From contig JAJYHZ010000001.1 in assembly GCA_021796335.1 (NCBI GenBank), forward strand, positions 144,360 through 208,359: a stretch of DNA of 64,000 nucleotides. The letters are read 5' to 3'. Both the position numbers and the translations under genes were made by a program. Below the pieces are notes generated by a model. It was not told the DNA's origin. It did not search any database and saw only the letters and a program-made list of their open reading frames with translations. Each line of letters starts with the position of its first letter. Within the stretch, counting starts at the first letter, position 1. This document shows, piece after piece, positions 2,724-53,420 of the stretch. This DNA is from a bacterium. Lineage in GTDB: Bacteria > Patescibacteriota > Minisyncoccia > UBA6257 > UBA9933.

Positions 2724-3323
2724 ATGAAATTTATTCTCGGCAAAAAAATAAAAATGACTCAAATTTGGAAAAATGACAAGGTTGTTCCCGTAACCTTAGT
2801 TCAAGCCGGTCCGGTAACTGTTACTCAAATCAGGTCAAAAGATAAAGACGGCTATGAAGCTGTTCAGGTTGGCTTTGATGCAACCAAGAAGAAATTGAAT
2901 AAACCGGAAAAAGGTCATTTAAAAGATCTGGGAAATTTCCGACATTTGAAAGAATTCAAAGCAAACAAAGAATACAAAGTGGGCGATGTTCTGAATGTTG
3001 CCCAATTCGTTGAAGGAGACAAGATTAGAATAAGCGGATTTAATAAGGGTCGCGGTTTCCAGGGCGGAGTCAAAAGGCATAATTTTGCCGGCGGGCCAAA
3101 AACCCACGGCCAAAAAAACAGATTTCGAGCCCCTGGTTCAATTGGATCAACCGCTCCGCAAAGAGTTCTGCCGGGACTAAAAATGGCCGGTCACATGGGA
3201 GTTGAAAGAACTACGATTAAAAACGCCAGAGTTATTGATACTGATAAAGAAAAAAATATTTTGATGATCAAAGGGCCTGTTCCTGGCATGAAGGGAACAT
3301 TATTAGAAATTACCGCCAACTAA
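2724..3323 (+). CDS. rplC: 50S ribosomal protein L3
   Basis: MKFILGKKIKMTQIW...VTLVQAGP N-terminus and overall L3 conservation. Confidence 0.95.
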   Translation: MKFILGKKIKMTQIWKNDKVVPVTLVQAGPVTVTQIRSKDKDGYEAVQVGFDATKKKLNKPEKGHLKDLGNFRHLKEFKANKEYKVGDVLNVAQFVEGDKIRISGFNKGRGFQGGVKRHNFAGGPKTHGQKNRFRAPGSIGSTAPQRVLPGLKMAGHMGVERTTIKNARVIDTDKEKNILMIKGPVPGMKGTLLEITAN

Positions 3324-3341
3324 CGACTAAGAGCTATTTCA

Positions 3342-3980
3342 ATGAAAGTAGAAATTTTCGACAAACAGAATAAAAAAAGCGGAGAAATTGCCTTATCAGA
3401 CAAGGTTTTTGATGTTGAGTTGAATAAAAATCTGATTCACCAGGCGATTACGACTCACATGGCCAATTCCAGAAAGCCCTGGGCGCACGTCAAAGACAGG
3501 GGAGAAGTTTCCGGAGGAGGCAAAAAACCATGGAAACAAAAAGGAACCGGCCGCGCGCGACACGGATCAATCCGCTCTCCGTTATGGATCGGCGGAGGAG
3601 TGACCCATGGACCCAGAAACGAAAGAGATTTCTCCAAGAAACTTAATAAAAAAATGAAGCAATTGGCGACTTTTATGGCCTTATCCCAAAAATTGAGGGA
3701 TAAGGAATTGATAATTGTCGACGAACTGGGTAATTCTAAGAAAACAAAAGATTGGACAAACATTTTGAAAAATTTTATTGATTTAAGAACAAAAACCGCA
3801 TTAATCCTGGAAGCGGCGAATAAAAACAGCGCCAAGGCCATTTCCAATATTAAAAATATCGATACATTGTGTCCGAAATCCTTAAATGCTTATGACTTAT
3901 TCAGGAGTAAATATATTATTTTAGAATCAAAAGCAGTCGAAGAAATCCAAAATCACTACAAAAATATTTCTAATTCCTAA
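3342..3980 (+). CDS. rplD: 50S ribosomal protein L4
   Basis: GGGKKPWKQKGTGRARHGSIRSP motif. Confidence 0.93.
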   Translation: MKVEIFDKQNKKSGEIALSDKVFDVELNKNLIHQAITTHMANSRKPWAHVKDRGEVSGGGKKPWKQKGTGRARHGSIRSPLWIGGGVTHGPRNERDFSKKLNKKMKQLATFMALSQKLRDKELIIVDELGNSKKTKDWTNILKNFIDLRTKTALILEAANKNSAKAISNIKNIDTLCPKSLNAYDLFRSKYIILESKAVEEIQNHYKNISNS

Positions 3981-25286: not shown

Positions 25287-25359
25287 TCCCCGGTAGCTCA
25301 GCTGGTAGAGCGGCTCGCTGTTAACGAGATGGTCGTAGGTTCGAATCCTACCCGGGGAG
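25287..25359 (+). tRNA. tRNA-Asn (anticodon GTT)
   Basis: Cloverleaf folded by hand: 7-bp acceptor tccccgg/ccgggga, D-arm tagctcagctggtagagc, anticodon loop cuGUUaa, T-arm gtagg-ttcgaat-cctac. No encoded CCA. Confidence 0.85.
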
Positions 25360-26821
25360 CATCTATAAAACTTAGGTCAGTTTCAGAAAAATTCAGCCGC
25401 GCTTCGCGGAGCGAAGCGTAAGGTTTTGTGGGGGTAAATTCGACACGACGGTTTTTGAGAAAGAGGTTCGAGCCGAAAATTTTTCGGAGGGAGGTCTTTT
25501 TGGCATTTATGTCGTCATTGATTGCGACTTTCGCAAGCAATGACGCGTCTTTTATCCAGTTTCGCATCGGTTCGAGCCACGGGCACTGGCCTCTTTGCGA
25601 TCTCGCCAAAACCTCCTCCAGCGATTTCTTCTCCGACATGAGGGTTTTCTTGCGGGCAAGGTAGGTGTCGTGGTCGATTTCCTGATCCACAAAGAGGTCG
25701 GTGATCCGGTCTATCTTCTGGCGTACGTCGTCGATCTTCTCCTGTAAGCCCCTGACGAGGGTTGCCATCGTGCGGGAGGCGTCTTTTTCGTCTTCGTCCG
25801 CGAGCCGCGACATCTCTCTAGCCCACGCCTCCGGCATGACGTACTGCGTGAGCAGTTCGGAGAGGTCGGCGACAAGAGTTTCTTCCCTGATATATGGTTG
25901 CGAACAGCGGGTCGCCGCTTTTTTGGTACAGCGGTAATAGATATGGCCCTTCTGTTCTTCAGCGGTGATCATGCACCCACACTCGCCGCACCGGAGCAAG
26001 CCGCATAGCGGCTTCGGTTCTTTGTCCGTCTTCTGCGGGTGTCCCCGCCTCTCGATCACGGACTGCACTTTGTCGAACAATGCCTTGCTGATGAGCGGCG
26101 TATGCCTGCCCTCGTATATCTCCCCGCCATAGCGGAAATGACCGTAGTAAAAGGGGTTGGTGAGAATGAATTTTATTTGATCTTTATGGAGCGGATTGCC
26201 GTGCCAACTTTTCACGCCGTTATCAAAGAGAAATTTGGAAATGTCTTCGTAACGAGAGTTGCCTTTGGCGTACAGCTCGATGGCGGCGATAACCGCTTTG
26301 CTTTTCTTCCGGTCAATCACGATGGTCTTCGCTCGCACGTCGTTCAGATATCCCACGGGTGCGGTTCCGGGGAATATTCCCATCCGCGCCTTCTGCCGCA
26401 GCCCTCGGCTCGTATTGGAACTAAGATCGCGGATGAACTGGTTGGCCATGCCAAACTCGACGGACATGAGAAGCACGTTGTCCGGCGGATAGTAACTCTT
26501 TTCGGGCGTGGCGATACGCTGAATAGTTCCCTGTTGGAGCAACCAGCGCACAAGTCCGTCGTCCACCGGATTTCTCGCCAGTCGATCCAGCTTCCAGCAG
26601 ATGACGCCCTGTGCCTCGCCCCGTTGGATACGGTTCATCATATCGTTGAATATCGGGCGTCCGGGCACTTTTGCCGTCCGGCTCTCGGTAAACTCGGTCA
26701 AAATCTCCAACCCTTCGCTTTTTGCAAGCGAGCGTAGTTCCTGTAACTGGCCTTCAATGGAGAGAACCTGCTTGTCCTCGACATCGGTGGATTTTCGGGC
26801 GTAGAGGAAGTAATTGGCCAT
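25298..26821 (-). CDS. Large serine recombinase A (resolvase catalytic domain + recombinase domain + zinc ribbon + coiled coil)
   Basis: YARKSTDVEDKQVLSIEGQ catalytic Ser region, CGLLRCGECGC...YYRC zinc ribbon. Start chosen at MANYFLY (26821). The reading frame runs through IR1-L and antisense through the tRNA, so the true C-terminus is uncertain. GC-rich. Confidence 0.8.
   Translation of the reverse strand: MANYFLYARKSTDVEDKQVLSIEGQLQELRSLAKSEGLEILTEFTESRTAKVPGRPIFNDMMNRIQRGEAQGVICWKLDRLARNPVDDGLVRWLLQQGTIQRIATPEKSYYPPDNVLLMSVEFGMANQFIRDLSSNTSRGLRQKARMGIFPGTAPVGYLNDVRAKTIVIDRKKSKAVIAAIELYAKGNSRYEDISKFLFDNGVKSWHGNPLHKDQIKFILTNPFYYGHFRYGGEIYEGRHTPLISKALFDKVQSVIERRGHPQKTDKEPKPLCGLLRCGECGCMITAEEQKGHIYYRCTKKAATRCSQPYIREETLVADLSELLTQYVMPEAWAREMSRLADEDEKDASRTMATLVRGLQEKIDDVRQKIDRITDLFVDQEIDHDTYLARKKTLMSEKKSLEEVLARSQRGQCPWLEPMRNWIKDASLLAKVAINDDINAKKTSLRKIFGSNLFLKNRRVEFTPTKPYASLREARLNFSETDLSFIDAPRVGFEPTTISLTASRSTS
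25357..25472. repeat. IR1-L: left copy of a 116-bp perfect inverted repeat (starts within the last 3 nt of tRNA-Asn)
   Basis: Exact reverse complement of 29518-29633 by direct comparison; contains the GC hairpin cgcttcgcgg-agcgaagcg. Confidence 0.9.
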
Positions 26822-37947: not shown

Positions 37948-38715
37948 ATGCTTATAAAAACAAAAATACAAAAATTAATTTTATTAATAGGGGGTATTTT
38001 AATATTTTTACAATTAGATAATGTCAGTTATTATCGAACCACTAAAGCTTTATTAAATTCTATTAGTATTGCGGTTATAACTTTTGTTTTATTAATTTTA
38101 TCCAAAGATTATGAACCAAAATTCCATTTAAAAATTTGGAATTTTATAAAAAAACATAAGTATATTATTTTAATCGTTAGTTTAATCGTTAGTTTTATTT
38201 GGGGAATTAAATATTTAAGTGAATGGTATACACAAGAACAAATTAATGAACAATTTCATAATTCAGAAATTGTATACCAGAATTGCTTGGACAAGGTTGC
38301 AAATCAAGATAATGAAATTCAAAATGAAATAAATACTTATATTGATACAAATCTTCCTATAATACAACAATATAATTTACAGCACTATGGCGGATTATAT
38401 AACTTTTCCTGCATTACATATAATAGTCCCAATTGCTCTCAAGTTGAGAAAAAATATAATTCAGATATTGATCAAATTAGACAACAAAGCTATTTTGAAC
38501 AATGGTCAGATGCTAATAGACCTGGTTATAGTGATAAGGTGGGATTTTGGGAGGTATATTTTATGAAATGGATGATGGATAACCACCCTGAATTTTGCGA
38601 TGAATATAATCCAGGGCTTATTAGGGATTTTGTAAATAAAAAAATGAAAATAATTAATTCAAATCCCAGTAATCAGAGTTCTGGGGGAATTTTTATTCCT
38701 TTTTATGGGAAGTAA
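37948..38715 (+). CDS. Membrane protein, hypothetical (N-terminal TM helices)
   Basis: ORF; hydrophobic N-terminus; very AT-rich. Confidence 0.45.
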   Translation: MLIKTKIQKLILLIGGILIFLQLDNVSYYRTTKALLNSISIAVITFVLLILSKDYEPKFHLKIWNFIKKHKYIILIVSLIVSFIWGIKYLSEWYTQEQINEQFHNSEIVYQNCLDKVANQDNEIQNEINTYIDTNLPIIQQYNLQHYGGLYNFSCITYNSPNCSQVEKKYNSDIDQIRQQSYFEQWSDANRPGYSDKVGFWEVYFMKWMMDNHPEFCDEYNPGLIRDFVNKKMKIINSNPSNQSSGGIFIPFYGK

Positions 38716-40936: not shown

Positions 40937-42029
40937 ATTAAGTCATTTAATTAAATTGAAAAGAAAAATATTAAAAATATCCGGCGTTCTTATAATAATT
41001 TTTCTTATACTTGTTTTCCCAGCTAAATTTTTCACAAATAAAGAAAAGAATTTAAAAGGGCAAAATAAATCCATCTCAAACTATTTAAACACTTCCGTCT
41101 GGCCAATAAATAATTTAGCCAAAATTGCAAATAATTTTTACAAAAATAAAGATTATTCTATTTCTGCCAGTAGTACCAATTCAAAGCCCCAAAATAACAC
41201 CAATTCCGAAATAAGTCCCATATTAATAACAGCAAAAAGTCTTATAGCTCTAAACTGCTATGCCAAGTCCAATAATTTAACTATTACTCAAAAATATGGA
41301 GATAGCCGAGGAGATATTAAGTGGATGTTAGGCAGTGGCGTCTTAATTAATCCTCAGGGTTATATCCTAACAGCAAGGCACATCGTTGATCCTCAATGGG
41401 AAGTTTCCTCTTACGGCACATTTTTATCCGCTAAAGAAAGAAAACTTGATAGCCAGCTAATTTTTGATTATTGCGAAGTTAGTTTTCCGATTGATGATAC
41501 AAATTTACCAACTACTAAACAAATAAGAACCCAAGATCCTCATATCAAATTAACTCGCCCCTTTCCCTACATCGCCACTTTATATTTTACCCCATCAAAA
41601 GAAAATCTAAGCGGCTGGGAATACAACAATCTTGATTTTGCAATTCTCAAAATCAATCAATCTAATTCTTATTCTTATAATCCGGCTATTTACTCGCAAG
41701 TGCCTCAGGATTCCGATCAAGTTATAACCTATGGATATGCGCCAAGCCCAGATATACCATTTAACGAATTTTATATAGAAGGGTCGGCTGGAATAGTAAA
41801 TACATATTATGGCGGTGATCAATATTTTTTACACAAACCTTTTCAATTTGGATATACGGCTAAAAATATAAAATCTGGCAAATCAGGATCGCCAATATTC
41901 TGGAAAGGATATGTTGTGGGGATTGAAATTGCTGGCGATAATAATCCTCCTGATTATGCCTTGGGTATTCCAGCAATCTATCAAATCTTAAAAGACAATA
42001 ATTTGGATTGGATTTTATTGAAAAATTAA
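40923..42029 (+). CDS. Membrane-anchored trypsin-like (S1/HtrA-fold) serine protease
   Basis: GSGVLINPQGYILTARHIV (His), DFAILKI (Asp), GKSGSPIF (Ser) catalytic-triad motifs; N-terminal TM helix. Confidence 0.65.
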   Translation: MILNKLSHLIKLKRKILKISGVLIIIFLILVFPAKFFTNKEKNLKGQNKSISNYLNTSVWPINNLAKIANNFYKNKDYSISASSTNSKPQNNTNSEISPILITAKSLIALNCYAKSNNLTITQKYGDSRGDIKWMLGSGVLINPQGYILTARHIVDPQWEVSSYGTFLSAKERKLDSQLIFDYCEVSFPIDDTNLPTTKQIRTQDPHIKLTRPFPYIATLYFTPSKENLSGWEYNNLDFAILKINQSNSYSYNPAIYSQVPQDSDQVITYGYAPSPDIPFNEFYIEGSAGIVNTYYGGDQYFLHKPFQFGYTAKNIKSGKSGSPIFWKGYVVGIEIAGDNNPPDYALGIPAIYQILKDNNLDWILLKN

Positions 42030-42406
42030 TTATTTTCATTATTCCGACTAAGTCCGCCATATATTGGAATTAAAGGAATGGGATTTTGTTTTAATTCATC
42101 AGCCTTTTCACTTTTATCAACAAAATAACCAGCTCTATCTAAAATATCTTTACAGGCATTAAGTCTAACATTTTCACTTTTTGCTTCTTTTGCCAATTTA
42201 TAAATTATAAGTATCGCATCTTCAGCTTTTTCTTTTAAATAATCTTTAATCGCAGGCTTTTGCAGGTTTTCTGTTCCTATTGAATGGGCTGTATTGCGAT
42301 TTTTGGCATTGTAAGCTCTGGCAGCCGATTCCGTGGCATTTCCTGTTTCAAGATAATTATTTACAAAATTTTGTTGTTTTAATGTTAATTTTCCCATAAT
42401 TTCCAA
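42026..42406 (-). CDS. Phage terminase small subunit-like protein (TerS, HTH)
   Basis: LTLKQQNFVNNYLETGNATESAARAYNAKNRNTAHSIGTENLQKPAIKDYL matches the terminase small subunit N-terminal signature. Confidence 0.65.
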   Translation of the reverse strand: MEIMGKLTLKQQNFVNNYLETGNATESAARAYNAKNRNTAHSIGTENLQKPAIKDYLKEKAEDAILIIYKLAKEAKSENVRLNACKDILDRAGYFVDKSEKADELKQNPIPLIPIYGGLSRNNENN

Positions 42407-43374: not shown

Positions 43375-44673
43375 ATGAGAAAAAATAACAAGCGTGTTTT
43401 TTTCGGCCCTGCCAGAAATTTCAACAGGCCTAAACCCTCATTTGGGCGTAATTTTAAAAACAATCGAAAAGCAAACTTTACCAAAAGTCTATTTATTGAT
43501 GAATCGAAATTCATTAATAAAGCCATTGAAAATAATCTCTCTGAATTTATTCCTAAGCATAAATTCACTGATTTTAAAATCAGTGAAAAATTAAAGCAAA
43601 ATATTCTAAAAAAGGGATTTGAAAAGCCAACGGCTATTCAAGATCAAACTATTCCAGAAGTTCTAAACGGTAAAGATGTTATTGGTTTAGCTGATACCGG
43701 TACTGGTAAAACCGCCGCCTTTTTAATCCCATTCATCGATAAAACAATTCGCAATAAAAATCAAAAAGTATTAATCATGGCTCCTACCAGGGAATTAGCC
43801 ATCCAAATCAATGCGGAATTTATGGAACTGGCCAAATTTCTTGGCATTTTTTCTGTCACTGCCGTTGGTGGCGACAGCATTGGACCCCAAATTTCACAAA
43901 TCCGAAGAGGATATCATTTTCTTATCGGAACTCCTGGCAGAATAAAAGATTTGGCCAAAAGAAATCTAATTCGTTTTGATGGTTTTAAAAGCGCTATTTT
44001 AGATGAATCTGATCGTATGCTAGATATGGGTTTTATTAAAGATATGAAGTTTATTTTGAATCAAATGCCCAAGGAAAGGCAAACTCTGCTATTTTCTGCT
44101 ACTTTATCTCCAAAAATTGAAAACTTATCTCATCAGTTTATGCATGAGCCGCTTAAAATTAAAACTAAAATTCGCGAAACTTCTGCAAACGTTGACCAAG
44201 ACATTATTCGCGTAAACTCTAATGATGAAAAAATTGAAATTCTTCATAACCTGCTCATCGATAAAAAATTTATGAAAGTTTTGGTTTTTGTTAAAACAAA
44301 AAGCGGTGCAGAAAAACTTGAAATGGATCTTGGAAGAAGAGGATTTAAGGCGGCTTCCATTCATGGAGATAAGAGGCAGCCACAAAGGCAAAGAGCCCTT
44401 AAGTTATTTAAGGAAGACAAGGCTCAAGTTTTAGTGGCAACAGATGTGGCCGCTCGAGGCTTAGATATTTCCGAAGTTAGTCATGTTATTAATTTTGATA
44501 TTCCAGCTACTTATGAGGACTACATTCACAGAATTGGCAGAACGGGTAGAGCGGGGAAAAAGGGAGCTGCCTTAACTTTTATTGGCCAGAGAATCAAAAC
44601 AAAGCATCACAATTTTTCCCAAAGCAAGAGAGGGTCTCACAGATTTTCATCTGTCCGTGCATATAATAATTAG
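43375..44673 (+). CDS. DEAD-box ATP-dependent RNA helicase (DESD variant) with a basic N-terminal extension
   Basis: Q-motif, ADTGTGKTAAF, PTRELA, DESD, SAT, HRIGRTGRAG motifs. Confidence 0.88.
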   Translation: MRKNNKRVFFGPARNFNRPKPSFGRNFKNNRKANFTKSLFIDESKFINKAIENNLSEFIPKHKFTDFKISEKLKQNILKKGFEKPTAIQDQTIPEVLNGKDVIGLADTGTGKTAAFLIPFIDKTIRNKNQKVLIMAPTRELAIQINAEFMELAKFLGIFSVTAVGGDSIGPQISQIRRGYHFLIGTPGRIKDLAKRNLIRFDGFKSAILDESDRMLDMGFIKDMKFILNQMPKERQTLLFSATLSPKIENLSHQFMHEPLKIKTKIRETSANVDQDIIRVNSNDEKIEILHNLLIDKKFMKVLVFVKTKSGAEKLEMDLGRRGFKAASIHGDKRQPQRQRALKLFKEDKAQVLVATDVAARGLDISEVSHVINFDIPATYEDYIHRIGRTGRAGKKGAALTFIGQRIKTKHHNFSQSKRGSHRFSSVRAYNN

Positions 44674-44777: not shown

Positions 44778-47381
44778 ATGGAACAATGGCCTAAATATAA
44801 AACCGAAAAAGAAATTGAAAAACAGGTTAAGGATGCGGAAGATAACTTAGGAACCGAATTAGTTCCAGAATTAATTGATTATAAAAATTTATCCCTAAAT
44901 GAAATAAAAGAAAAATTTCCAGAAAGATATAACACTTATCTGCGTATCTTGCGTTCAGAAAGAAACAATAAAGAAATTGAAGAATCAGAATTAAACGAAA
45001 TGAGAGAATGGATACAAGCTCTAAATAATCTCGATCACTATATTATTAAACATAAAAATAATCACGAAGAAAGGATTCTTCGTGAAAAGCAGTTTGACGT
45101 CTTTAAAGACATAAGAAAATCATTGGAAGAAGGTAAAAAGGAGGGCTATGTAAAACTTCCAACTGGAGTTGGTAAAACAGTTTTATTTTCTCAAGTTGTT
45201 GAATCAATGGGAATTAGAACCCTTATTATTGTTCCCTCAAAAATTCTTATTAATCAAACAGGTCAGCGATTAGAAGAATTTACAGATCTTGAATTTGGTA
45301 AATATTACCAGGAAGAAAAAGATTTTTCTAAATCAGCAACAACAATAACTTATCAATCATTAATTAGGGGTGTGGAAAATGGAGAAATTAACCCGGATGA
45401 TTATAAACTTCTTATCCTTGATGAGGCGCACAAGGCTTTAGGAGAAAAAACTTTGAAAATTATTCAAAGATTTAATTCGATAAAATTAGGATTTACAGCA
45501 ACGCCAGAATATTCAAAAAATAAGCGTTTAGGAGATTTACTTGAACATGAAATTCATAATATAAGTGTTGTTGAGGCTGTTCAGGAAGGCCTTATAAATC
45601 GCTTTAAATCTGTAGTTGCGCGCACAACAACAGACATTTCCAATGTTAAGATAAAAAATGGAGAATATGACAAAAAAGAGCTTGAAACGGTCGTAAATAA
45701 TCATGCCAGAAATTTAGCTGCCGTTGATCTATATAGAAAATCATTTAATAACCTTAGTACGATTATTTATTGCAGTGGAGTCAAGCATGCCCAAGATACT
45801 TCGGATTTATTCAGACAAAATGGGATTCAAGCTGAAGTTATTTCTGGCAAAACAGATAAAGAAGAACGAGAGATAATCTTAAATAAATTTAGGGATGGCG
45901 AGATTAAAGTGCTTTGCAATGCGAAAGTTCTCGTTGAAGGTTTTGACGAACCCAGAGCAAGTGTTGCCTTCAATCTTCAGCCAACGCTTTCAATAGTTAT
46001 TGCAGAACAACGGGCCGGAAGAGTATTACGTTTAGATAAAAATAACCCAGAAAAATGGGGTGTTGTAGTTGATTTTATTGATGCAAACGCAAAAGTCCCT
46101 CCAATAATTTTCGCAGAGGTGGCAGGATCAAGCGAGGCGACTGAGTATAAAGTCAGTAATGCCATTGAAAAAGAAAGAGAAAAAAAAGTGATTCAAACAA
46201 CCAAGACAAATCAAAGCGATTTTGAGCAAGATGAATTTGAAAATTTAAAAAATATAAAAATCGAAGGATTAAAAGTTATTGTTGATGCTCAAGAAATATT
46301 ACGAATTGCAGCTGATCAAAAGAATGAGAGAGAAAAATTATTTTCTGAATTTCCGCAAGACTGGCTACCCTTAAATCAATTAATAGAAGAATTAGGGGTG
46401 GCTCGCAAAACAGTTACGGATTATGTTGAACAATATCGAAATAATCATCCAGATTGGTTCAAAATGGGAAAATTTAAATCGGGAAAATTAACCGAAGGTT
46501 ATCATCCTAATCTAGTTGCTTTAATCAGAGAAAAATTTAAAGAAAATTTATTATTAGAGAATTTACCAAATGATTTTTTGACTCCAAATCAAATAATTGG
46601 GAAATTTAAAATAAACCGAGAACGAAAAACAATCGCAAATTATGCCGAAAAATATCGAAATGATCATCCTGAATGGTTCAAGGTTGGGAAAAAGATGGGG
46701 AATAAAGTTGAAGCCTATCATCCAGATTTAGTTAAAATTATAAGTGACTATTTTAAGGATAAAGAACTACCAACTAATTGGATAACATCAAGTCAACTTA
46801 GCAATTTGTTGAAAGTAACGGAGCCGTTAATTCGAGCTTATGCCGAAAAATATCGAAATAATCATCCTGAATGGATTAAAGTTGGGAAATCTGGAGTTAG
46901 GGATGCGATTGCATATCACCCCGATTTAATTGAAAAAATAAAAAAACACCTTTTTGTCGAAGAACTTCCCGACAAATGGAAAACGGCAAGTCAGATATTA
47001 GGCGAGCTAAAATCAAAAGCAAGTGCAAGTCTTCAAATGATAAAATACCTTGCTGAACAATATCGTAATGAGCATCCAGATTGGTTTAAAACAGGGAAGA
47101 TATATTCAAAAATTACCGAAGGATATAACCCAACCTTAGTAGAATTAATAAAAAATCATTTATTAACTCTGGAGTTTCCGGATGGATGGAAAACAGCAAG
47201 CCAAATAAGATATAAAACTAAAACTGATATTTATAAAATTCAAGATTATGTTGAACAGTATCGTAATAACCATTCAAACTGGTTTAAAATGGGAAGAGTT
47301 AGAGGGAAATCAGCTGAAGGTTATCATCCTGATTTAGTAAAAATTATTGAAGAATATTTTAAAAGGAACAAAAATCCATAG
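44778..47381 (+). CDS. SF2 helicase (ResIII/DEAH-like N-terminal ~500 aa) fused to five tandem ~70-aa C-terminal repeats
   Basis: Walker A TGVGKT, DEAH, TATPE, QRAGRVLR motifs. The C-terminus carries 5 repeats of Y(A/V)E(Q/K)YRN(N/D)HP(D/E)WFK.GK...(E/A)YHPDLV..I with period ~200-218 nt from ~46380 to 47345. Confidence 0.8.
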   Translation: MEQWPKYKTEKEIEKQVKDAEDNLGTELVPELIDYKNLSLNEIKEKFPERYNTYLRILRSERNNKEIEESELNEMREWIQALNNLDHYIIKHKNNHEERILREKQFDVFKDIRKSLEEGKKEGYVKLPTGVGKTVLFSQVVESMGIRTLIIVPSKILINQTGQRLEEFTDLEFGKYYQEEKDFSKSATTITYQSLIRGVENGEINPDDYKLLILDEAHKALGEKTLKIIQRFNSIKLGFTATPEYSKNKRLGDLLEHEIHNISVVEAVQEGLINRFKSVVARTTTDISNVKIKNGEYDKKELETVVNNHARNLAAVDLYRKSFNNLSTIIYCSGVKHAQDTSDLFRQNGIQAEVISGKTDKEEREIILNKFRDGEIKVLCNAKVLVEGFDEPRASVAFNLQPTLSIVIAEQRAGRVLRLDKNNPEKWGVVVDFIDANAKVPPIIFAEVAGSSEATEYKVSNAIEKEREKKVIQTTKTNQSDFEQDEFENLKNIKIEGLKVIVDAQEILRIAADQKNEREKLFSEFPQDWLPLNQLIEELGVARKTVTDYVEQYRNNHPDWFKMGKFKSGKLTEGYHPNLVALIREKFKENLLLENLPNDFLTPNQIIGKFKINRERKTIANYAEKYRNDHPEWFKVGKKMGNKVEAYHPDLVKIISDYFKDKELPTNWITSSQLSNLLKVTEPLIRAYAEKYRNNHPEWIKVGKSGVRDAIAYHPDLIEKIKKHLFVEELPDKWKTASQILGELKSKASASLQMIKYLAEQYRNEHPDWFKTGKIYSKITEGYNPTLVELIKNHLLTLEFPDGWKTASQIRYKTKTDIYKIQDYVEQYRNNHSNWFKMGRVRGKSAEGYHPDLVKIIEEYFKRNKNP

Positions 47382-47664
47382 TTGCAATGGCAATGCTATC
47401 ATTATATGCCATATCAGAATTCGAACCGGAGGTGTTGAGATATTTTTATAATCTTTGTAAAAACCGCAAATATAAAGTCTCGTTAGAAATCGAATTACGG
47501 TTAGAGGCACTTGGTTTACCGAGGCTGGCAAGGCTGTCCCAGTGGCTCGCAATGTGTTGCTTTCAGCAGCAGAGATGAAACAAGGAGAAATTCAACTCAA
47601 TAATCCCATAAAAACCCATTAAAAAACCGAGGGAGGGAGGTTTATTATATCACTGGAACGAGCC

Positions 47665-47877
47665 TTGAGGTACATACTAAGAGAAAAAGAAATAAGACTT
47701 GACCAACTCGAAGGTATGGGAGTTACCACAGAACAGCTTATTACTGCTCTCAATAAAGAAGGCTTCACTTTTACTTCTAAGGATTACAATGATGATGGCG
47801 AAGAAAAATCAAGTGAAATATGGTTGGACCTTGAGCGAATAGAAGAGGATGATGGTCCTGGTGGAATAGATTATTAA
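47665..47877 (+). CDS. Small acidic hypothetical protein (TTG start)
   Basis: ORF only, followed by the terminator candidate. Confidence 0.3.
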   Translation: MRYILREKEIRLDQLEGMGVTTEQLITALNKEGFTFTSKDYNDDGEEKSSEIWLDLERIEEDDGPGGIDY

Positions 47878-47894
47878 CACAGCTTCAAAAAAGC

Positions 47895-47937
47895 AAAGAG
47901 GACCTTGATGATAACTTCAAAGAGGTCCTGTTTTTTA
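47895..47937 (+). terminator. Intrinsic terminator candidate (aggacc...ggtcct + tttttt)
   Basis: Stem-loop followed by a T6 run. Confidence 0.45.
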
Positions 47938-48069
47938 TACAAAACTATAAATAGCTAAAATCTTTCTTAATTGCTTTCTAATTCTCAGTTCCATTTGCGT
48001 GGATCAAAGCGAGTATTCTAGGACTAATAAATGCAAAAGACTCCGTTCTGTTCCTTTATTCATTAATAT

Positions 48070-48104
48070 ACAAAATAAAAAAACCCTCCCCATGAGGGGG
48101 AGGG
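48070..48104 (-). terminator. Intrinsic terminator for the minus-strand gene (ccctcccc-atga-ggggaggg; T-run on minus strand)
   Basis: Perfect 8-bp GC stem flanked by an A-run on +. Confidence 0.6.
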
Positions 48105-48158
48105 AAGGGGCGCTGATAATTTAAGAATAAATCATCAAAACGCTGGGCCCCTGTTTCA

Positions 48159-48362
48159 TTATTTAATAAAATCGCCTTTGGATATTTTATCCGCAAGGTC
48201 ATCCTTGCTAAAGGCGATTACATGTTTAACCTCTCCGGTTTCAGTATTTTTGACGGTGTAGTCATTACTCTCCGGCACAAGGCCAAGAGTAAATGCACTA
48301 GCGAGAGCTGATTCGGTGGTTGTCTCTTCATGTGTGACTTCCCACTTGTTGTCATTGCCCAT
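48159..48362 (-). CDS. Small hypothetical protein
   Basis: ORF with a downstream hairpin terminator; RBS aggaggtgg upstream on the minus strand. Confidence 0.45.
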   Translation of the reverse strand: MGNDNKWEVTHEETTTESALASAFTLGLVPESNDYTVKNTETGEVKHVIAFSKDDLADKISKGDFIK

Positions 48363-48556
48363 CAGATTCCACCTCCTTTCTTTTAGCCAATATAGATATG
48401 GCTTTGATTTTTTAAAAACCTATATTTAGGATATCCCGTTGCAAATATTTGTCAAATGTTGTGGTAATGTGTACGTAAATTATTTTCATTTGACTAAATC
48501 TCTAACACCTGGTATGTTTTAGCCAGGACAAAAATAAAATATAAAAAGGAGGTTTT

Positions 48557-48793
48557 GTGAGATACACACTCGAATATAATATCGCTGGCGAGGGATGCAG
48601 TGGTCATGGCAGCTGCAGTTTCGAAGCTGAAAATGATGGAGAAGCTGTTCCCAGGGCAAAAAACATTAGCAATGAAAGAAGAACTATATTAAAAGAAATA
48701 AATAGCAATATCGATATCATTCCTCTTCGACTTATCAAGGCTGGAGTCGATATTGAAATAACATTATCAAAACCCAAACACAGCTATCGATAA
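48557..48793 (+). CDS. Small hypothetical protein (GTG start, Cys/Gly-rich N-terminus)
   Basis: aaaaaggagg SD 7 nt upstream. Confidence 0.4.
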   Translation: MRYTLEYNIAGEGCSGHGSCSFEAENDGEAVPRAKNISNERRTILKEINSNIDIIPLRLIKAGVDIEITLSKPKHSYR

Positions 48794-48816
48794 TAAATAG
48801 AAAGTGAGGTGAACAG

Positions 48817-49194
48817 GTGAAATCTATTGGAAGACACCATCAAACAGAAGCTGTAGGACAGAAAGACATAAATGGCTTTTTCATGGTTCGTTGCCTGGAT
48901 TGTGGTACTTATGCTCATGCAATTGATATATCAACGGCGGAAATTCACCTGGCCATGACTGCATGTGCGCCCAATTGTACAAATTGCAATAGTCTGCGCC
49001 ATAGCTATGACCGTAAACCAGCTGTTCCTGAAGGAGGAAACTGCAATGATATTCTGCACGAGTGTCCTCATGATGGAAATAGATGGTGGCAGAGTAATGA
49101 TCACTTCCATCTTTGGCAGCAGGTTACTGATCTAAGAGAATGGGAGGGGTTACTCCGAGAGTACGGTAAAAAATATCCTGATCTGGTCGATTGA
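48817..49194 (+). CDS. Cys/His-rich hypothetical protein (GTG start)
   Basis: gtgaggtg SD; 10 Cys and many His, suggesting metal binding. Confidence 0.4.
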   Translation: MKSIGRHHQTEAVGQKDINGFFMVRCLDCGTYAHAIDISTAEIHLAMTACAPNCTNCNSLRHSYDRKPAVPEGGNCNDILHECPHDGNRWWQSNDHFHLWQQVTDLREWEGLLREYGKKYPDLVD

Positions 49195-49336
49195 TATAAT
49201 TTAATCTGATATGGATTATAAGAGGGAACAATCCTTTAAGTTGTAGTTCCCTCCCTTTCCGAACTCATTTGCAAAGGCGATTTCAGAAAGGGATTTTATC
49301 CCAAGTAGAACATAAAAAACTGAAAATGAGGTATAG

Positions 49337-49597
49337 ATGAATACAAAAGTTCATCAAGTATTAGGGAAAGACAGAATAAATTCCATCTGCGATAGTTTCT
49401 TGCTGACAGAAGAAGATAAAAAGATGGTGGATGTAATTCTGGAAAATTGGGAAAACCTTATTGGTAATCCCATAAAGAAGATGGCCATTGCAATGGAAAT
49501 AACAAAGGACGTCGGTGTCTCTACGACCAAAAAGATCATTTTTGCCATAACAGAAATATCGTTTCAATTCTTGGAAATGCAGATAAAAAATAAATAG
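49337..49597 (+). CDS. Small hypothetical protein
   Basis: ORF; aaatgaggt SD-like. Confidence 0.35.
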   Translation: MNTKVHQVLGKDRINSICDSFLLTEEDKKMVDVILENWENLIGNPIKKMAIAMEITKDVGVSTTKKIIFAITEISFQFLEMQIKNK

Positions 49598-50039
49598 GAC
49601 CGAAGGAGGTGAATTAAATAGCAATGATTATTCCATGTTTTATAACTCAGGAATATTTTGACTTATGCGTTATGGATTATGAGCTTTAAAAAAACTGGAA
49701 TCCTAAAATCGGAGATTGGTATTTCTGTTATGATCTGATGAAAATAATGCAGATTACCAATCTGAATAACTATTACTCTGGCTGCCTTCTGATCATGACA
49801 AGGATTCCAATGGCCATTGGACTTGTGATATTTATATCCCCGTCACTGCCTGAATTATTCGAATAAAACTATGGGCACCTACCTGCGAGCAAGGGCCTTT
49901 TTCTTTTTGTCCCTACTTTACGACTCCGACTCTTGACAAATAATTTCATATATGTATAATTATCATATAAATATTGTTCTTTTATTCCCTGCGGTTTTTT
50001 ACCGCAGAAAGGAGGACCCAATAATTATGAGGGTTTGAC

Positions 50040-50071
50040 GCCTCCCTAGACAACTAGCGGAGGCTTTTTTT
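50040..50071 (+). terminator. Intrinsic terminator (gcctccctag...ctagcggaggc + T7)
   Basis: Stem-loop plus T-run. Confidence 0.55.
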
Positions 50072-50189
50072 ATTATCGACGAATTAAATTATCTTAATAA
50101 TGGAGAAAAAATGATGATTTTATTTGGATTGATATTATAAAATATTATGGTAATCTATAAATAAAAAGTGATTAAGTAATTTAAATAAT

Positions 50190-50669
50190 ATGCACGAAAA
50201 AGATATATTTGCCGCCAATCCAGACAAAGCACATTCCAGAATAGATATCAATGCTTTTATAATGGAAAGCTTATTTTTTATTTTAACTTTAATATGGACA
50301 TTAAATCCGAATAAATTCAATATATACATAATTACGCAAATAGTAATAGGTATTCCATTTGTATATGTGTCAAGTCTCGCTTATTCTAAAATCGGCTATT
50401 GGAAAGAAACAAAATTATGGGATATGCTTGGCTGGTTCACGCATAATACCAGTAATATTTTTATTTTAAATGTTGTCGGATTGATGACGAGCAGTTTTAA
50501 TAAAAATTTATCTTTTTTGTATTTTGGGGTAGTAATAATTTTAATGGCAATTTATTCCAGTATAAACTTGGTTTATAAACCGAAATCCTTAAAAGAAAAA
50601 TCATTTAAATTTCTTTACTTTATTTTAATTTTATTTCTTGGAGGAATTCTGCCTGTAATTTTATTATAA
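50190..50669 (+). CDS. Integral membrane protein, hypothetical
   Basis: 4-5 hydrophobic helices. Confidence 0.45.
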   Translation: MHEKDIFAANPDKAHSRIDINAFIMESLFFILTLIWTLNPNKFNIYIITQIVIGIPFVYVSSLAYSKIGYWKETKLWDMLGWFTHNTSNIFILNVVGLMTSSFNKNLSFLYFGVVIILMAIYSSINLVYKPKSLKEKSFKFLYFILILFLGGILPVILL

Positions 50670-50924
50670 AATTTATTATATTATAGCTAGAATAATAATT
50701 AAAAAATTTGAAATAAAATAATAGAGAGGGCTGCTAAATTTTTATAACAGGGCGGACCAAATCCGCCCTTTTCTTTTTGCAATAATATAATTTATAATAA
50801 GTCAGGTCTTGATTAAATTTTATAAAGAAAGGGGTATGGTCATGCTTACAGTTGATTTGTCCATAAACCAGTTTAAAAAGGGAAAAAAATAAGGGAGGAA
50901 TATGAATCTCCCAAGGTCGTATAT

Positions 50925-51191
50925 GTGGCTACTGTAAAAATATCTAAAAAAGTCAGAATGCCTGTTAAGGCAATTCTGACTGATAGAAAGAAAAATGAAT
51001 TACCTGTAGACATATACTATGACGTCAAAAGAAATACGGCATATTGCGTCATAACGCACGCCAGAAAGGATATTGTATTCACGCTAAAAACCAATCCTGC
51101 ACTTGACGAACTATCAAGTGCTCAGGGACGAAATGATAAAACCGGCGAATGGATGAATTGGTCTGCCTACCTTATGGTTATTGGCAGGTAA
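50925..51191 (+). CDS. Small hypothetical protein (GTG start)
   Basis: ORF only. Confidence 0.3.
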   Translation: MATVKISKKVRMPVKAILTDRKKNELPVDIYYDVKRNTAYCVITHARKDIVFTLKTNPALDELSSAQGRNDKTGEWMNWSAYLMVIGR

Positions 51192-51266
51192 GACCAGTTT
51201 TATAAATATTAGGAGGCCCACAATTTCTTGGGCCTCATTCTTTATAAGGGATAAGGGGAGAAATAT

Positions 51267-51665
51267 ATGGAAGATTATGAAAAAGATTTAAATGATCTTG
51301 ACCCTTGGAAAAATTTCCATAGAGAATATTCGGTAAAGATAAATGGAAAGAAATTTAAAATAAAAAGTTACGGATTCTGCGTGTGGAATAAGGTAATTTT
51401 CCTTTGGGACGACGGAAAAGAATTTTATCGTTTATCCCGCAACCTTAAATCTCCGAGAGACGATAAAGGTATCTCCAGACGCGAATATTCCAATAATAAG
51501 TTGATAAGGATATATAAAGGCCCGCAAAACTGCTTTATAGAATTAATCGAATTTATACTGAAAGGAGGCGATTTAAATACAGCCAAAAAATTGCTTAAAT
51601 TCTGCAAAAAGACCTTCGACAATTACCTGCGGCTTTTTAAATCAGCCTTTGAGTCAGAAATATAA
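51267..51665 (+). CDS. Hypothetical protein
   Basis: ggggag SD; terminator at 51691-51720. Confidence 0.4.
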   Translation: MEDYEKDLNDLDPWKNFHREYSVKINGKKFKIKSYGFCVWNKVIFLWDDGKEFYRLSRNLKSPRDDKGISRREYSNNKLIRIYKGPQNCFIELIEFILKGGDLNTAKKLLKFCKKTFDNYLRLFKSAFESEI

Positions 51666-51690
51666 TAACTTGTCGCCCCTCAAAATATCA

Positions 51691-51720
51691 ACCTGCCTAA
51701 TAAGGCGGGTTTTCTTTTTT
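51691..51720 (+). terminator. Intrinsic terminator (acctgcc-taataa-ggcgggt + T-run)
   Basis: Stem-loop plus tttcttttttt. Confidence 0.5.
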
Positions 51721-51852
51721 ACCGGCCGGCCTCATAATTTCAAGGGTTTATTTTAAATAATTCTATTTAAAAACAAAATAAAAATATTAAAAAAAATTTC
51801 TCATATTTAATCACATTTAACATTAATTTCTAAATAAGCTATAATTCATATT

Positions 51853-52188
51853 ATGAACATAATCACATTAATCGTATATCCTGCTAAAGAATTGGAAAGC
51901 ACAAAACAAATATTCAGCAATTTTTTGGGAGTGGAACCATATGTAGACGGACCTTATTATGTGGGATACAAAGTGGGCGATATGGAAGTTGGGCTTGATC
52001 CTAATGCCCAAAATGCCGGTCCTATAATTTATATTGATGTCACCGATATTAAAGCTTCATTGCAAGAAATGATAGCCGCGGGCGCAACTCTGCAACAAGA
52101 TATTAGAGATGTGGCTCAGGGATTATTAATCGCAAGCGTTAAAGATAAAAATGGAAATATCCTGGGCTTTAGGCAGTTCCCCAAATAA
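51853..52188 (+). CDS. VOC/glyoxalase-family protein
   Basis: Paired beta-alpha-beta-beta-beta glyoxalase-like pattern (GYKVGDMEVGL...NGNILGF). Confidence 0.55.
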   Translation: MNIITLIVYPAKELESTKQIFSNFLGVEPYVDGPYYVGYKVGDMEVGLDPNAQNAGPIIYIDVTDIKASLQEMIAAGATLQQDIRDVAQGLLIASVKDKNGNILGFRQFPK

Positions 52189-52287
52189 AATTACGCCTTA
52201 TTTTTACCACCACCGCATAACATTTTTCATATTTTGATATAATTAAAATCATAAAGGTCAATTAATATCTTTATCCCCGTTAAAAAT

Positions 52288-52443
52288 ATGGTAAGAGGAA
52301 ACTTCATCGGTGCGGCAATTATCACAATAATTTATACGATCTATATTCTGGTACATCCGCTTGCGACAAAGACACAAACAGTATTAATATTGGTCGTGCT
52401 TAACGCTTTAACCATTATATTAATGGCTTTTGCATTCAAATAA
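52288..52443 (+). CDS. Small (51 aa) membrane peptide, hypothetical
   Basis: Below the ORF-track threshold; two hydrophobic segments; found by manual reading. Confidence 0.25.
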   Translation: MVRGNFIGAAIITIIYTIYILVHPLATKTQTVLILVVLNALTIILMAFAFK

Positions 52444-52602
52444 GTATTATTTGAACAGGCGGTGGTCTTTTTTATGCCATTGATGGTTTTATGAAAAATT
52501 TTGAAATTTAAAAAGGTGTTGACCGTGCCGAGCTAGAACGGTCTTTTATTTTTGGGAAAAACGAAAATTGTTAATTTCTTACAGTTTGATTATACTTTGA
52601 TT

Positions 52603-52872
52603 ATGAAAAATAAATGGGTTGTTTTCGGAGTCTTAATCGCGATAATCGTTATAGTCGCCCTTGGAATAAACCAAATTTTAATTTTGCGAAACGCCCATAG
52701 CACATTCGATAATTACTATGCTTTCAGAGGTTGTACCCGACTAATCAGCCAAACCGATAACTATGGAACATGCGAGCTTGCTTCCGGTAAAATCATCAAA
52801 ATCGTAAAATTCCGGGATAAATGGTATTTAGAGGGAGATTTGCCAAGTTGCTGGTCTAATTTCTGTTTCTAA
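52603..52872 (+). CDS. Small secreted/membrane protein (start revised to MKNKWVVFG)
   Basis: The track ORF starts at 52552, but a hairpin terminator (52529-52557) and a tatact -10-like box precede the ATG at 52603, which gives an N-terminal TM segment. Confidence 0.4.
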   Translation: MKNKWVVFGVLIAIIVIVALGINQILILRNAHSTFDNYYAFRGCTRLISQTDNYGTCELASGKIIKIVKFRDKWYLEGDLPSCWSNFCF

Positions 52873-52949
52873 CTGTCGAACCGTATCACCTAATACAGAA
52901 GAAAAAGCGCTTCGAATTATTAAAATTTAGAATTCGTAAAATTTATCAG

Positions 52950-53420
52950 ATGATAAATCAATTAATCATTTTTAGTGCCAAATATCTTTATTTATTGGTT
53001 ATTGCCATAACTGTTTTATTTTTTATAAAACAACCTCGTGATATCCAAAAACAACTTCTTATTTTTGGAATTATAACTTTGCCTGCCGCATATATCATCG
53101 CCAAACTGGCAGGATTTTTATATTATGATCCAAGGCCGTTTATACAAGGAGGGTTTACGCCTCTCATACCGCATGCGGCAGACAATGGGTTTCCTTCGGA
53201 TCACGCCTTATTAAGCGCTGCAATTTCAACTGCGATTTCTCCTTTCAACAAAAAAATCTCCGTCATTCTTTGGATATTAACCGCAATAATAGGCTTATCA
53301 AGAGTTCTCGCCGGAATTCATCATCTTATCGACATTTTTGGAAGCATCATAATTTCAGTAATTGCGGGATATCTTGCCTATCAAATTATAGAGAAGAAAA
53401 AAACTGTCGAGGTGAAATAA
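52950..53420 (+). CDS. PAP2-family phosphatase (undecaprenyl-diphosphatase/BcrC-like)
   Basis: PSDH and SRV..G.HH..D motifs. Confidence 0.75.
   Translation: MINQLIIFSAKYLYLLVIAITVLFFIKQPRDIQKQLLIFGIITLPAAYIIAKLAGFLYYDPRPFIQGGFTPLIPHAADNGFPSDHALLSAAISTAISPFNKKISVILWILTAIIGLSRVLAGIHHLIDIFGSIIISVIAGYLAYQIIEKKKTVEVK

Follow-up and report, generated by a model that had tools for sequence, protein, structure and literature searches.

In a 64,000-nucleotide window of a Patescibacteria genome (assembly GCA_021796335.1, contig JAJYHZ010000001.1, positions 144,360 to 208,359), one gene encodes an 867-residue protein in which an XPB/RadD-like superfamily 2 (SF2) ATPase motor is followed by five tandem repeats that are predicted to adopt a winged helix-turn-helix (wHTH) fold. 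By analogy with BldC and Xis, we consider it reasonably likely that the repeats form a covalent, head-to-tail wHTH array that tethers this XPB/RadD-branch motor to double-stranded DNA (dsDNA). An earlier note, made from the letters of the window alone, had described an SF2 helicase with a complete core and five tandem C-terminal repeats of about 70 residues. Both parts of that description were borne out, the helicase by motifs read directly from the translation together with ResIII and Helicase_C matches above their Pfam cut-offs, and the repeats by a hidden Markov model (HMM) of the unit, which placed five units of 66-69 residues each over residues 526-867.

The five units are contiguous, make up the last 342 residues of the protein (unit HMM, E 1e-19 to 1e-26) and end with it, the C-terminal helix of unit 5 being the end of the chain; the unit HMM found no further copies in the six frames of the window. 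Pairwise identity between the units is 36-50% in protein and 58-67% in DNA, and because the DNA copies are so diverged Tandem Repeats Finder, when run on the window DNA, did not detect them. The recurrence that had been noticed at the DNA level was reproduced in its spacing, since the YRN codons start at 46434, 46653, 46851, 47061 and 47259, within 1-3 nucleotides (nt) of where they had been placed. The 29-nt motif of the note found three matches at three or fewer mismatches, against none expected from shuffled sequence; the other two copies are more diverged. To call the YRNxHPxWF motif strictly conserved was a slight overstatement: YRNxHxxW is invariant in all five units, but unit 3 deviates with WI and unit 5 with HS.

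It is extremely improbable that the repeats are an artefact of assembly or annotation. Two independent assemblies, one from ENA and one from Logan, agree in every base of the gene and of over 6 kb of flanking sequence, the reading frame is uninterrupted, and copies with only 58-67% identity in DNA are too diverged to collapse or expand during assembly. Since the assemblies are identical and the same architecture recurs in dozens of orthologues (the repeat is found in 47 of the best 120 homologues of the helicase), misassembly, which the earlier note had named among the findings that would refute it, is excluded.

The fold of the repeat was analysed with AlphaFold2 (AF2). Modelled alone, unit 2 gave a predicted local distance difference test score (pLDDT) of 90, with a one-residue strand at the conserved W-x-T, a helix at positions 7-14, a second helix at 20-31, a beta-hairpin at 38-43/46-51 and a helix at 53-67. 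The full-length model (pLDDT 85.4, predicted template modelling score (pTM) 0.60) returned the same fold in all five units, so that the structural check proposed for the array gave a wHTH prediction throughout. With its HTH, beta-hairpin wing and packed strand and helix, the modelled unit has the features that define a winged helix-turn-helix, and its predicted order of elements (strand, two-helix HTH, wing, helix) is that of MerR and Xis, which is HTH_17-like, and not the three-helix order of ArsR and MarR. Foldseek of a single unit against the PDB yielded nothing significant (best E 0.1), with a top list made up entirely of winged-helix regulators. The winged-helix proteins listed for the unit 2 model were P1 ParA, RacA, several MerR-family regulators, GlnR/TnrA and TipA, together with mycobacteriophage Xis and Tn916 Xis.

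At the level of sequence the unit is far more isolated. Its profile contains the classic HTH signature L-A-x-x-L-G-V-S-x-x-T-I; against PDB sequences the HTH segment matched, besides chance matches, only the designed HTH repeat 8vd6. The array has no dedicated family in Pfam, NCBIfam, PHROGs or PADLOC, and the HTH matches in Pfam and NCBIfam were all sub-threshold. MerR_1 (PF13411) matched the window protein with E 0.076-0.12 and 13 bits, below its cut-off of 21.6, and the HTH_17 (PF12728) family model gave no sequence match to the unit. The window protein also lies below the cut-offs of the generic families HTH_28 (PF13518, cut-off 25) and HTH_29 (PF13551, cut-off 28.1), which multi-copy relatives exceed by summing weak per-unit matches (P0145, HTH_28, 41.0 bits; P0141, HTH_29, 38.6 bits; P0111, HTH_29, 29.7 bits). 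Faint precomputed matches to HTH_AT3G52170 and WHD_BrxR were seen on relatives. The mitochondrial NDUFC1 family NADH_dh_m_C1 (PF15088) scored 34 bits on the array alone against a cut-off of 27, and 25.8 bits on the full protein. It was rejected as a chance match inflated by the repeats, as the score sums 21-residue matches of profile positions 3-23 to the YRNxHPxWF stretch, a region that is predicted as soluble wHTH. Thus, the description of the repeat as unrecognised stands insofar as it has no dedicated Pfam or NCBIfam family; from its modelled fold, however, it appears to be a divergent winged HTH, so that the repeat family is new but its class of fold is a known one.

Charge and conservation were then considered together with the model. 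The array carries a net charge of +15 with an isoelectric point (pI) of 9.4, and is the sole basic part of the protein, the N-terminal extension, core and linker having pI values of 5.0-6.7. Conservation was computed over 1074 units. Positions L10, I23, A27, Y30, L55 and I59 are conserved with the periodicity of a buried face, and P1, G3, W4, H34-P35-E36-W37-F38, E49-H50-Y51 and P53 are conserved at turns or caps. Conservation is lowest at 20-21, where helix 2 begins, at 7-9 and across the wing tip (43-48), and Lys or Arg makes up 41-53% of residues at positions 24, 25, 39, 42 and 46. The equivalent of helix 2 sits in the major groove in wHTH proteins, and on the model both the variable and the basic positions fall on the putative recognition helix and wing. 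In the conserved aromatic/His/Arg motif, YR..HPEWF and EHYHPDLV follow the periodicity of a buried core, turns and caps and not that of a surface that reads a ligand; the variable and basic positions lie elsewhere. The broader proposal of a modular nucleic-acid recognition array is favoured by the predicted winged-HTH fold, the basic array and the fusions to two types of DNA translocase, with binding itself a prediction.

All SF2 motifs are intact in the motor, with Walker A (PTGVGKT) at residues 128-134, DEAH at 215-218, TATPE at 240-244 and QRAGRVLR at 411-418, and the core is modelled confidently by AF2. Pfam placed ResIII at residues 101-244 (85.8 bits) and Helicase_C at 323-419 (62.8 bits), both above their cut-offs. 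The protein is a member of the SF2 helicase/translocase superfamily. Its closest solved motor by sequence is archaeal XPB-II (phmmer against the PDB, 1e-23), and the structural matches found by Foldseek were XPB-II at 26-27% identity over about 390 core columns, RadD at 20-21% over the core only, and TFIIH XPB. The helicase of SauUSI, a type IV restriction enzyme, was also among the nearest solved motors in both the PDB sequence search and Foldseek. In PHROGs the core matched phrog_16 'DNA helicase' with 247 bits, and DEAD-box families scored far lower on the motor than did the XPB/RadD-type matches. The XPB equivalog of NCBIfam (NF045503), a whole-protein model that takes in the XPB-specific DRD, RED motif and thumb, scored 74.6 bits against a cut-off of 610, and the RadD/YejH equivalog (NF053632), which takes in the zinc-finger and C-terminal domain, 91.9 bits against 720. 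Judged by its sequence, the motor is an SF2 member of the XPB/RadD branch but neither an XPB nor a RadD equivalog.

XPB (archaeal XPB-II and TFIIH XPB/Ssl2) and RadD are the best sequence and structure matches of the window protein, whose motor core has all SF2 motifs, but its accessory domains (helical N-terminal extension, neck and wHTH array) differ from theirs. Neither a Bax1-like partner nor the zinc-finger/C-terminal domain of RadD was detected for the window protein, and no nuclease domain was found in its 867 residues by Pfam, by NCBIfam or in the full-length model. The N-terminal extension is acidic (pI 5.2) and kept in orthologues, homologues covering 95-100% of residues 1-531. The neck has the consensus IxGLKVIxDxxEVMxI (alignment A2) and is likewise kept in orthologues, whichever type of repeat follows it, including the INT_rpt type discussed below.

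The distribution of the repeat was assessed by searching a profile of 66 units, taken from the window and the first 19 homologues (alignment A1), against 1.84 billion representatives of clusters at 50% identity. The family comprised 798 cluster representatives at E <= 1e-3, 543 at <= 1e-10 and 314 at <= 1e-30. All labelled members belong to the Patescibacteria, or candidate phyla radiation (Nomurabacteria, Colwellbacteria, Magasanikbacteria, Pacebacteria, Kerfeldbacteria, 'Patescibacteria group' and one 'Saccharibacteria'), and a genome collection searched with the whole protein gave one relative only, labelled Candidatus Saccharibacteria. These labels would place the window in the Patescibacteria as well. 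The repeat array had no match in phage and plasmid collections, so that the search of phage genomes which the note had proposed gave no link. A protein carries between 1 and 15 copies, most often 5. The distance between the starts of successive units is most often 68 residues and lies within 64-71 residues in 84% of cases; the array is therefore regular and without flexible linkers. We found no literature on this repeat or on the function of INT_rpt.

Four architectures carry the repeat. The most frequent among the matches listed joins an N-terminal domain of about 245 residues to 4-15 units. Others have an XPB/RadD-like helicase of about 520 residues with 2-10 C-terminal units, as in the window gene, or 5-14 N-terminal units followed by about 1000 residues of SNF2-family ATPase and Methyltransf_11, and there are also repeat-only proteins. 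The repeat is thus fused to two unrelated types of SF2 DNA translocase, one XPB/RadD-like and the other SNF2 with methyltransferase. The SNF2-type giants span 1100-1830 residues (P0148, P0196, P0231, P0141 and P0248; loci L010 and L011). The 245-residue domain, seen in P0001, P0003, P0005, P0007-P0009, P0012, P0015, P0140, P0142-P0144 and others (alignment A3), bears the motifs IPRtxyLxEvLsel, GxNxPxMMRxxSY and VNDEEGNATFV and had no Pfam, PDB-sequence, PADLOC or informative PHROG match; its role could reveal the purpose of the arrays. Two loci showed irregular arrays. Two extra units lie in a small open reading frame (ORF) immediately after helicase P0028 (L003, 8726-9103), and in P0001 the fifth unit is truncated and carries on in a different frame (L008, 7662-7802); these are either frameshifts, real or due to sequencing errors, or split arrays. 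Across ten loci covering the helicase, SNF2 and N-domain architectures, no conserved partner gene was found.

The helicase orthologues offered an opportunity to compare what follows the conserved motor and neck. More than 224 helicase homologues were found, and tails were compared in the best 120, which are 40-60% identical over the N-terminal extension, core and neck. While 47 of these end in the present repeat, 54 carry tails of the INT_rpt type (PF14882) in its place, one has a third repeat, one is a hybrid and 13 were unclassified. Among the INT_rpt-type orthologues are P0030, P0034, P0036, P0041, P0055, P0071, P0073, P0097 and P0122, P0055 scoring 65 bits to INT_rpt; the third type of repeat (T.EELK.FC...I.S..EY) occurs in P0039, and P0043 is the hybrid of two types. 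The INT_rpt arrays occupy the same C-terminal position after the same neck, in 2-7 copies of similar unit length and in orthologous Patescibacteria helicases. They differ, however, in consensus (F.s.eeLkkeV...GIkS..eY..yk.h.gWPs.P...Yk..W.gW.dFLG), and alignment of the unit with INT_rpt by hhalign gave a probability of relatedness of only 14% over the HTH-like part. The Pfam INT_rpt model did not match the window protein, and a local INT_rpt-like HMM found nothing in the window.

On a neighbour-joining tree of 87 cores there are at least 16 switches between the two main types of tail, whereas shuffled labels gave 28 on average and never fewer than 21. The type of tail is therefore inherited in part, yet has been exchanged time and again. 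Units within one array are 37-50% identical to each other, against about 20-47% between orthologous arrays whose cores are 53-60% identical, and no positional orthology of units was found between orthologous arrays. This combination indicates that arrays evolve by expansion, contraction or homogenisation. Both the interchangeability with INT_rpt and the SNF2 fusion fit a generic DNA-tethering role, and the exchange provides a functional hint for INT_rpt, which is itself uncharacterised.

How such a protein might work is suggested by small proteins that polymerise on DNA. The unit resembles BldC, Xis and RdfS in size class (68 residues in BldC, 66-69 here) and, as predicted, in the order of its elements: short strand, two-helix HTH, beta-hairpin wing and C-terminal helix. 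Monomers of these proteins align head-to-tail on DNA, an arrangement that a tandem array has by construction, and head-to-tail filaments along DNA are formed by RdfS, the Xis proteins of lambda and Pukovnik, and P2 Cox (PMC11963761). Unlike them, the window protein has its modules covalently joined, five in number (relatives have as many as 15), and carries them on an ATPase motor, and between helix 2 and the wing of the unit there is an additional conserved insert, YR..HPEWF. We propose that the flexible linker and conserved neck join the C-terminus of the motor to five contiguous wHTH modules, which would lie along dsDNA head-to-tail with about one module per helical turn, as the separate monomers of BldC, Xis and RdfS do. 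The array would then serve as a high-avidity, multivalent anchor of about 45-55 bp, possibly bending the DNA, and the motor would act on DNA beside the anchor, where it could be held or targeted. Alternatively, the anchored motor might use the fixed point to reel in, twist or open the DNA next to it. This second mode is proposed because XPB-type motors translocate on dsDNA against a fixed point, XPB in TFIIH being a dsDNA translocase that works against a fixed anchor. We infer DNA, and not RNA or protein, as the probable ligand, and the anchored action of the motor is suggested by analogy, as is the head-to-tail geometry, at which the covalent tandem order and the tight 68-residue spacing also hint.

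Other systems share parts of this arrangement. Compared with MerR, the unit is without the coiled-coil dimerisation helix and the effector region, ending instead in a helix of 13-15 residues after which the next unit begins, and the model shows no long coiled coil. Unlike members of HTH_17 and MerR_1, it has no sequence-level match, and its DNA binding is a prediction. The MerR-type wHTH DNA-binding domains of pSK1 Par and RacA, proteins of partition and chromosome anchoring, can be likened to the array, although they are only 11-17% identical to the unit, each chain has just one wHTH, and multimers form by way of coiled coils. The helicase-associated (HA) domain PF03457 is a helical repeat of about 70 residues on actinobacterial helicases. 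It shares with the window unit the principle of short repeated helical modules on helicases, presumed to bind nucleic acid, but has another motif, whereas the window unit has a beta-hairpin wing; PF03457 did not match the array in Pfam even at E <= 10. Long tandem arrays of small DNA-binding modules on an enzyme or effector are known from the (HhH)2 domains of topoisomerase V and from TALE repeats, the former serving as an analogy for avidity or processivity and the latter for a modular code, with folds unrelated to the unit. TALE repeats are near-identical save for two residues, whereas the window units are 36-50% identical.

Several observations weigh against a DNA-tethering array. In sequence, neither MerR_1 nor HTH_17 nor a solved wHTH matches the unit significantly; some 21% of the family's units are acidic (pI < 6), and therefore not every unit need contact DNA; and some winged-helix domains bind RNA or proteins. 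The full-length pTM is only 0.60, so that the arrangement of the units and their head-to-tail geometry are drawn from analogy. The genes around the family members differ from locus to locus and offer no hint of function, and no DNA target of the array was identified, the window containing no candidate tandem target. The acidic units, the existence of repeat-only proteins and the fact that the most conserved residues are not obviously DNA-facing would suit a scaffold or self-assembly module that acts in oligomerisation or partner recruitment without contacting nucleic acid. We give this little credence, in view of the net charge of +15 of the window array, the canonical HTH signature that is kept, the consistent fusion of the repeat to DNA motors and the lack of a conserved neighbouring partner gene. 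It is also improbable that the array binds RNA or serves RNA or ribosome metabolism, with the protein acting as an RNA helicase or ribonucleoprotein remodeller. While a DEAD-box RNA helicase is encoded directly upstream in the window, one orthologue adjoins rpsL/rpsG and winged-helix domains that bind RNA are known, this neighbourhood is not conserved. The closest matches of the motor are the dsDNA translocases XPB and RadD, type IV restriction helicases and phage DNA helicases, with DEAD-box families far lower, and the second enzyme to which the repeat is joined, an SNF2 ATPase, comes from a family of dsDNA translocases.

A role in anti-phage or restriction-like defence, with the array as the part that recognises the target, could be envisaged from the PADLOC matches of the motor to PbeA (80 bits) and to type IV methyl-directed restriction enzymes (75 bits), from the presence of SauUSI among the nearest solved helicases, from the rapid evolution and swapping of the array between orthologues, and from one orthologue that lies among recombinase, relaxase, HTH and PLD genes. 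Such a role is nevertheless decidedly unlikely, as the PADLOC matches cover the generic helicase core only, the protein has no nuclease domain, conserved partner genes are lacking, several orthologues lie among housekeeping genes and the phage and plasmid collections do not contain the repeat. The array might also read sequence, each unit recognising a short DNA element and so addressing the motor, or the SNF2-methyltransferase, to direct-repeat loci. The hypervariable positions 20 and 21 and the wing tip sit where wHTH proteins read bases, units within one protein differ from each other (36-50% identity), copy number runs from 1 to 15, and each BldC protomer reads a 9-bp direct repeat (PMC5859096). 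However, the units have no positional orthology and look homogenised, which argues against unit-specific targets kept over long periods; MerR, BldC and Xis make few base-specific contacts (PMC5859096, PMC11963761); the exchange of whole arrays for INT_rpt, at least 16 times, fits a generic role better; and, as mentioned above, the window offers no candidate tandem target. A modular code is thus unlikely to be the function of the array. Very unlikely is its fuller form, a programmable, direction-reading code by which arrays of 2-15 units would guide XPB-like and SNF2-methyltransferase motors to particular direct repeats in the genomes of Patescibacteria; if true, bacteria would have in it a winged-helix equivalent of TALE arrays that evolves as units are shuffled.

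A motor tethered by its array would, on the modelled fold, represent a new architectural variant, in which long covalent MerR/Xis-like winged-helix arrays are placed on DNA motors, and no new principle. A sizeable repeat family without a dedicated Pfam or NCBIfam model thereby gains a predicted fold and a likely role, and winged helices of the MerR/Xis type, known as separate monomers that polymerise on DNA, would here also occur as covalent arrays on motors. The Patescibacteria have very reduced genomes and a poorly understood DNA metabolism, and a widespread motor with swappable cassettes that probably anchor it on DNA is a concrete target for biochemistry in this group. The parts of the gene, which is identical to protein P0020 of public assemblies, are listed in the table.

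Table. Parts of the helicase-array gene, with window coordinates and the evidence for each.
Feature	Residues	Window position	Strand	Evidence and remarks
Whole gene: XPB/RadD-like SF2 ATPase with C-terminal five-unit winged-HTH array	867 aa	44778..47381	+	ORF list; Pfam ResIII and Helicase_C; stop codon included
N-terminal helical extension	1-100	44778..45077	+	Helices 10-24, 40-62 and 69-94 in AF2 full-length model
SF2 motor core	101-458	45078..46151	+	Pfam, NCBIfam, PDB sequence search, Foldseek, PHROGs
Linker from motor to C-terminal module, predicted disordered	459-484	46152..46229	+	pLDDT < 50 in full-length model
Neck, helix-strand-helix (IKIEGLKVIVDAQEILRI...), directly before array	485-525	46230..46352	+	Helix 479-491, strand 498-501 and helix 504-521 in model
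Repeat unit 1	526-592	46353..46553	+	Unit HMM E 2.9e-26; predicted strand-helix-helix-hairpin-helix in full-length model
Repeat unit 2	597-664	46566..46769	+	Unit modelled alone
Repeat unit 3	665-730	46770..46967	+	Unit HMM E 5.3e-21; same predicted fold in full-length model
Repeat unit 4	731-799	46968..47174	+	Unit HMM E 2.9e-19; same predicted fold in full-length model
Repeat unit 5	801-867	47178..47378	+	Unit HMM E 1.2e-25; same predicted fold in full-length model

The DEAD-box RNA helicase gene (43375-44673, +; DEAD 160.8 bits, Helicase_C 117.8 bits) lies upstream on the same strand, across a gap of 104 nt, an adjacency that was not seen at the orthologous loci examined. Downstream, positions 47400-53000 hold a 5.5-kb run of a dozen short ORFs (51-159 residues) with no Pfam matches, which ends at a PAP2 phosphatase gene (52950-53420). 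Between genes for a trypsin-like peptidase and a GNAT acetyltransferase, a small ORF at 42026-42406 (-), which corresponds to 3249-3620 of locus L001, has a precomputed match to the small subunit of phage terminase (Terminase_2) and may be what is left of a prophage. Further upstream, a full-length LOOT RNA motif (Rfam RF03000; 37788-37907, +) scored 84.6 bits, its gathering score being 46.4; the motif closely precedes an ORF at 37948-38715, in a very AT-rich stretch. The GC fraction is 0.44-0.48 at 24-34 kb, a region starting at a tRNA-Asn gene (25287-25360), falls to 0.27-0.30 at 36-42 kb and is about 0.37 elsewhere in the window, and this sharp change may mark islands of foreign origin.

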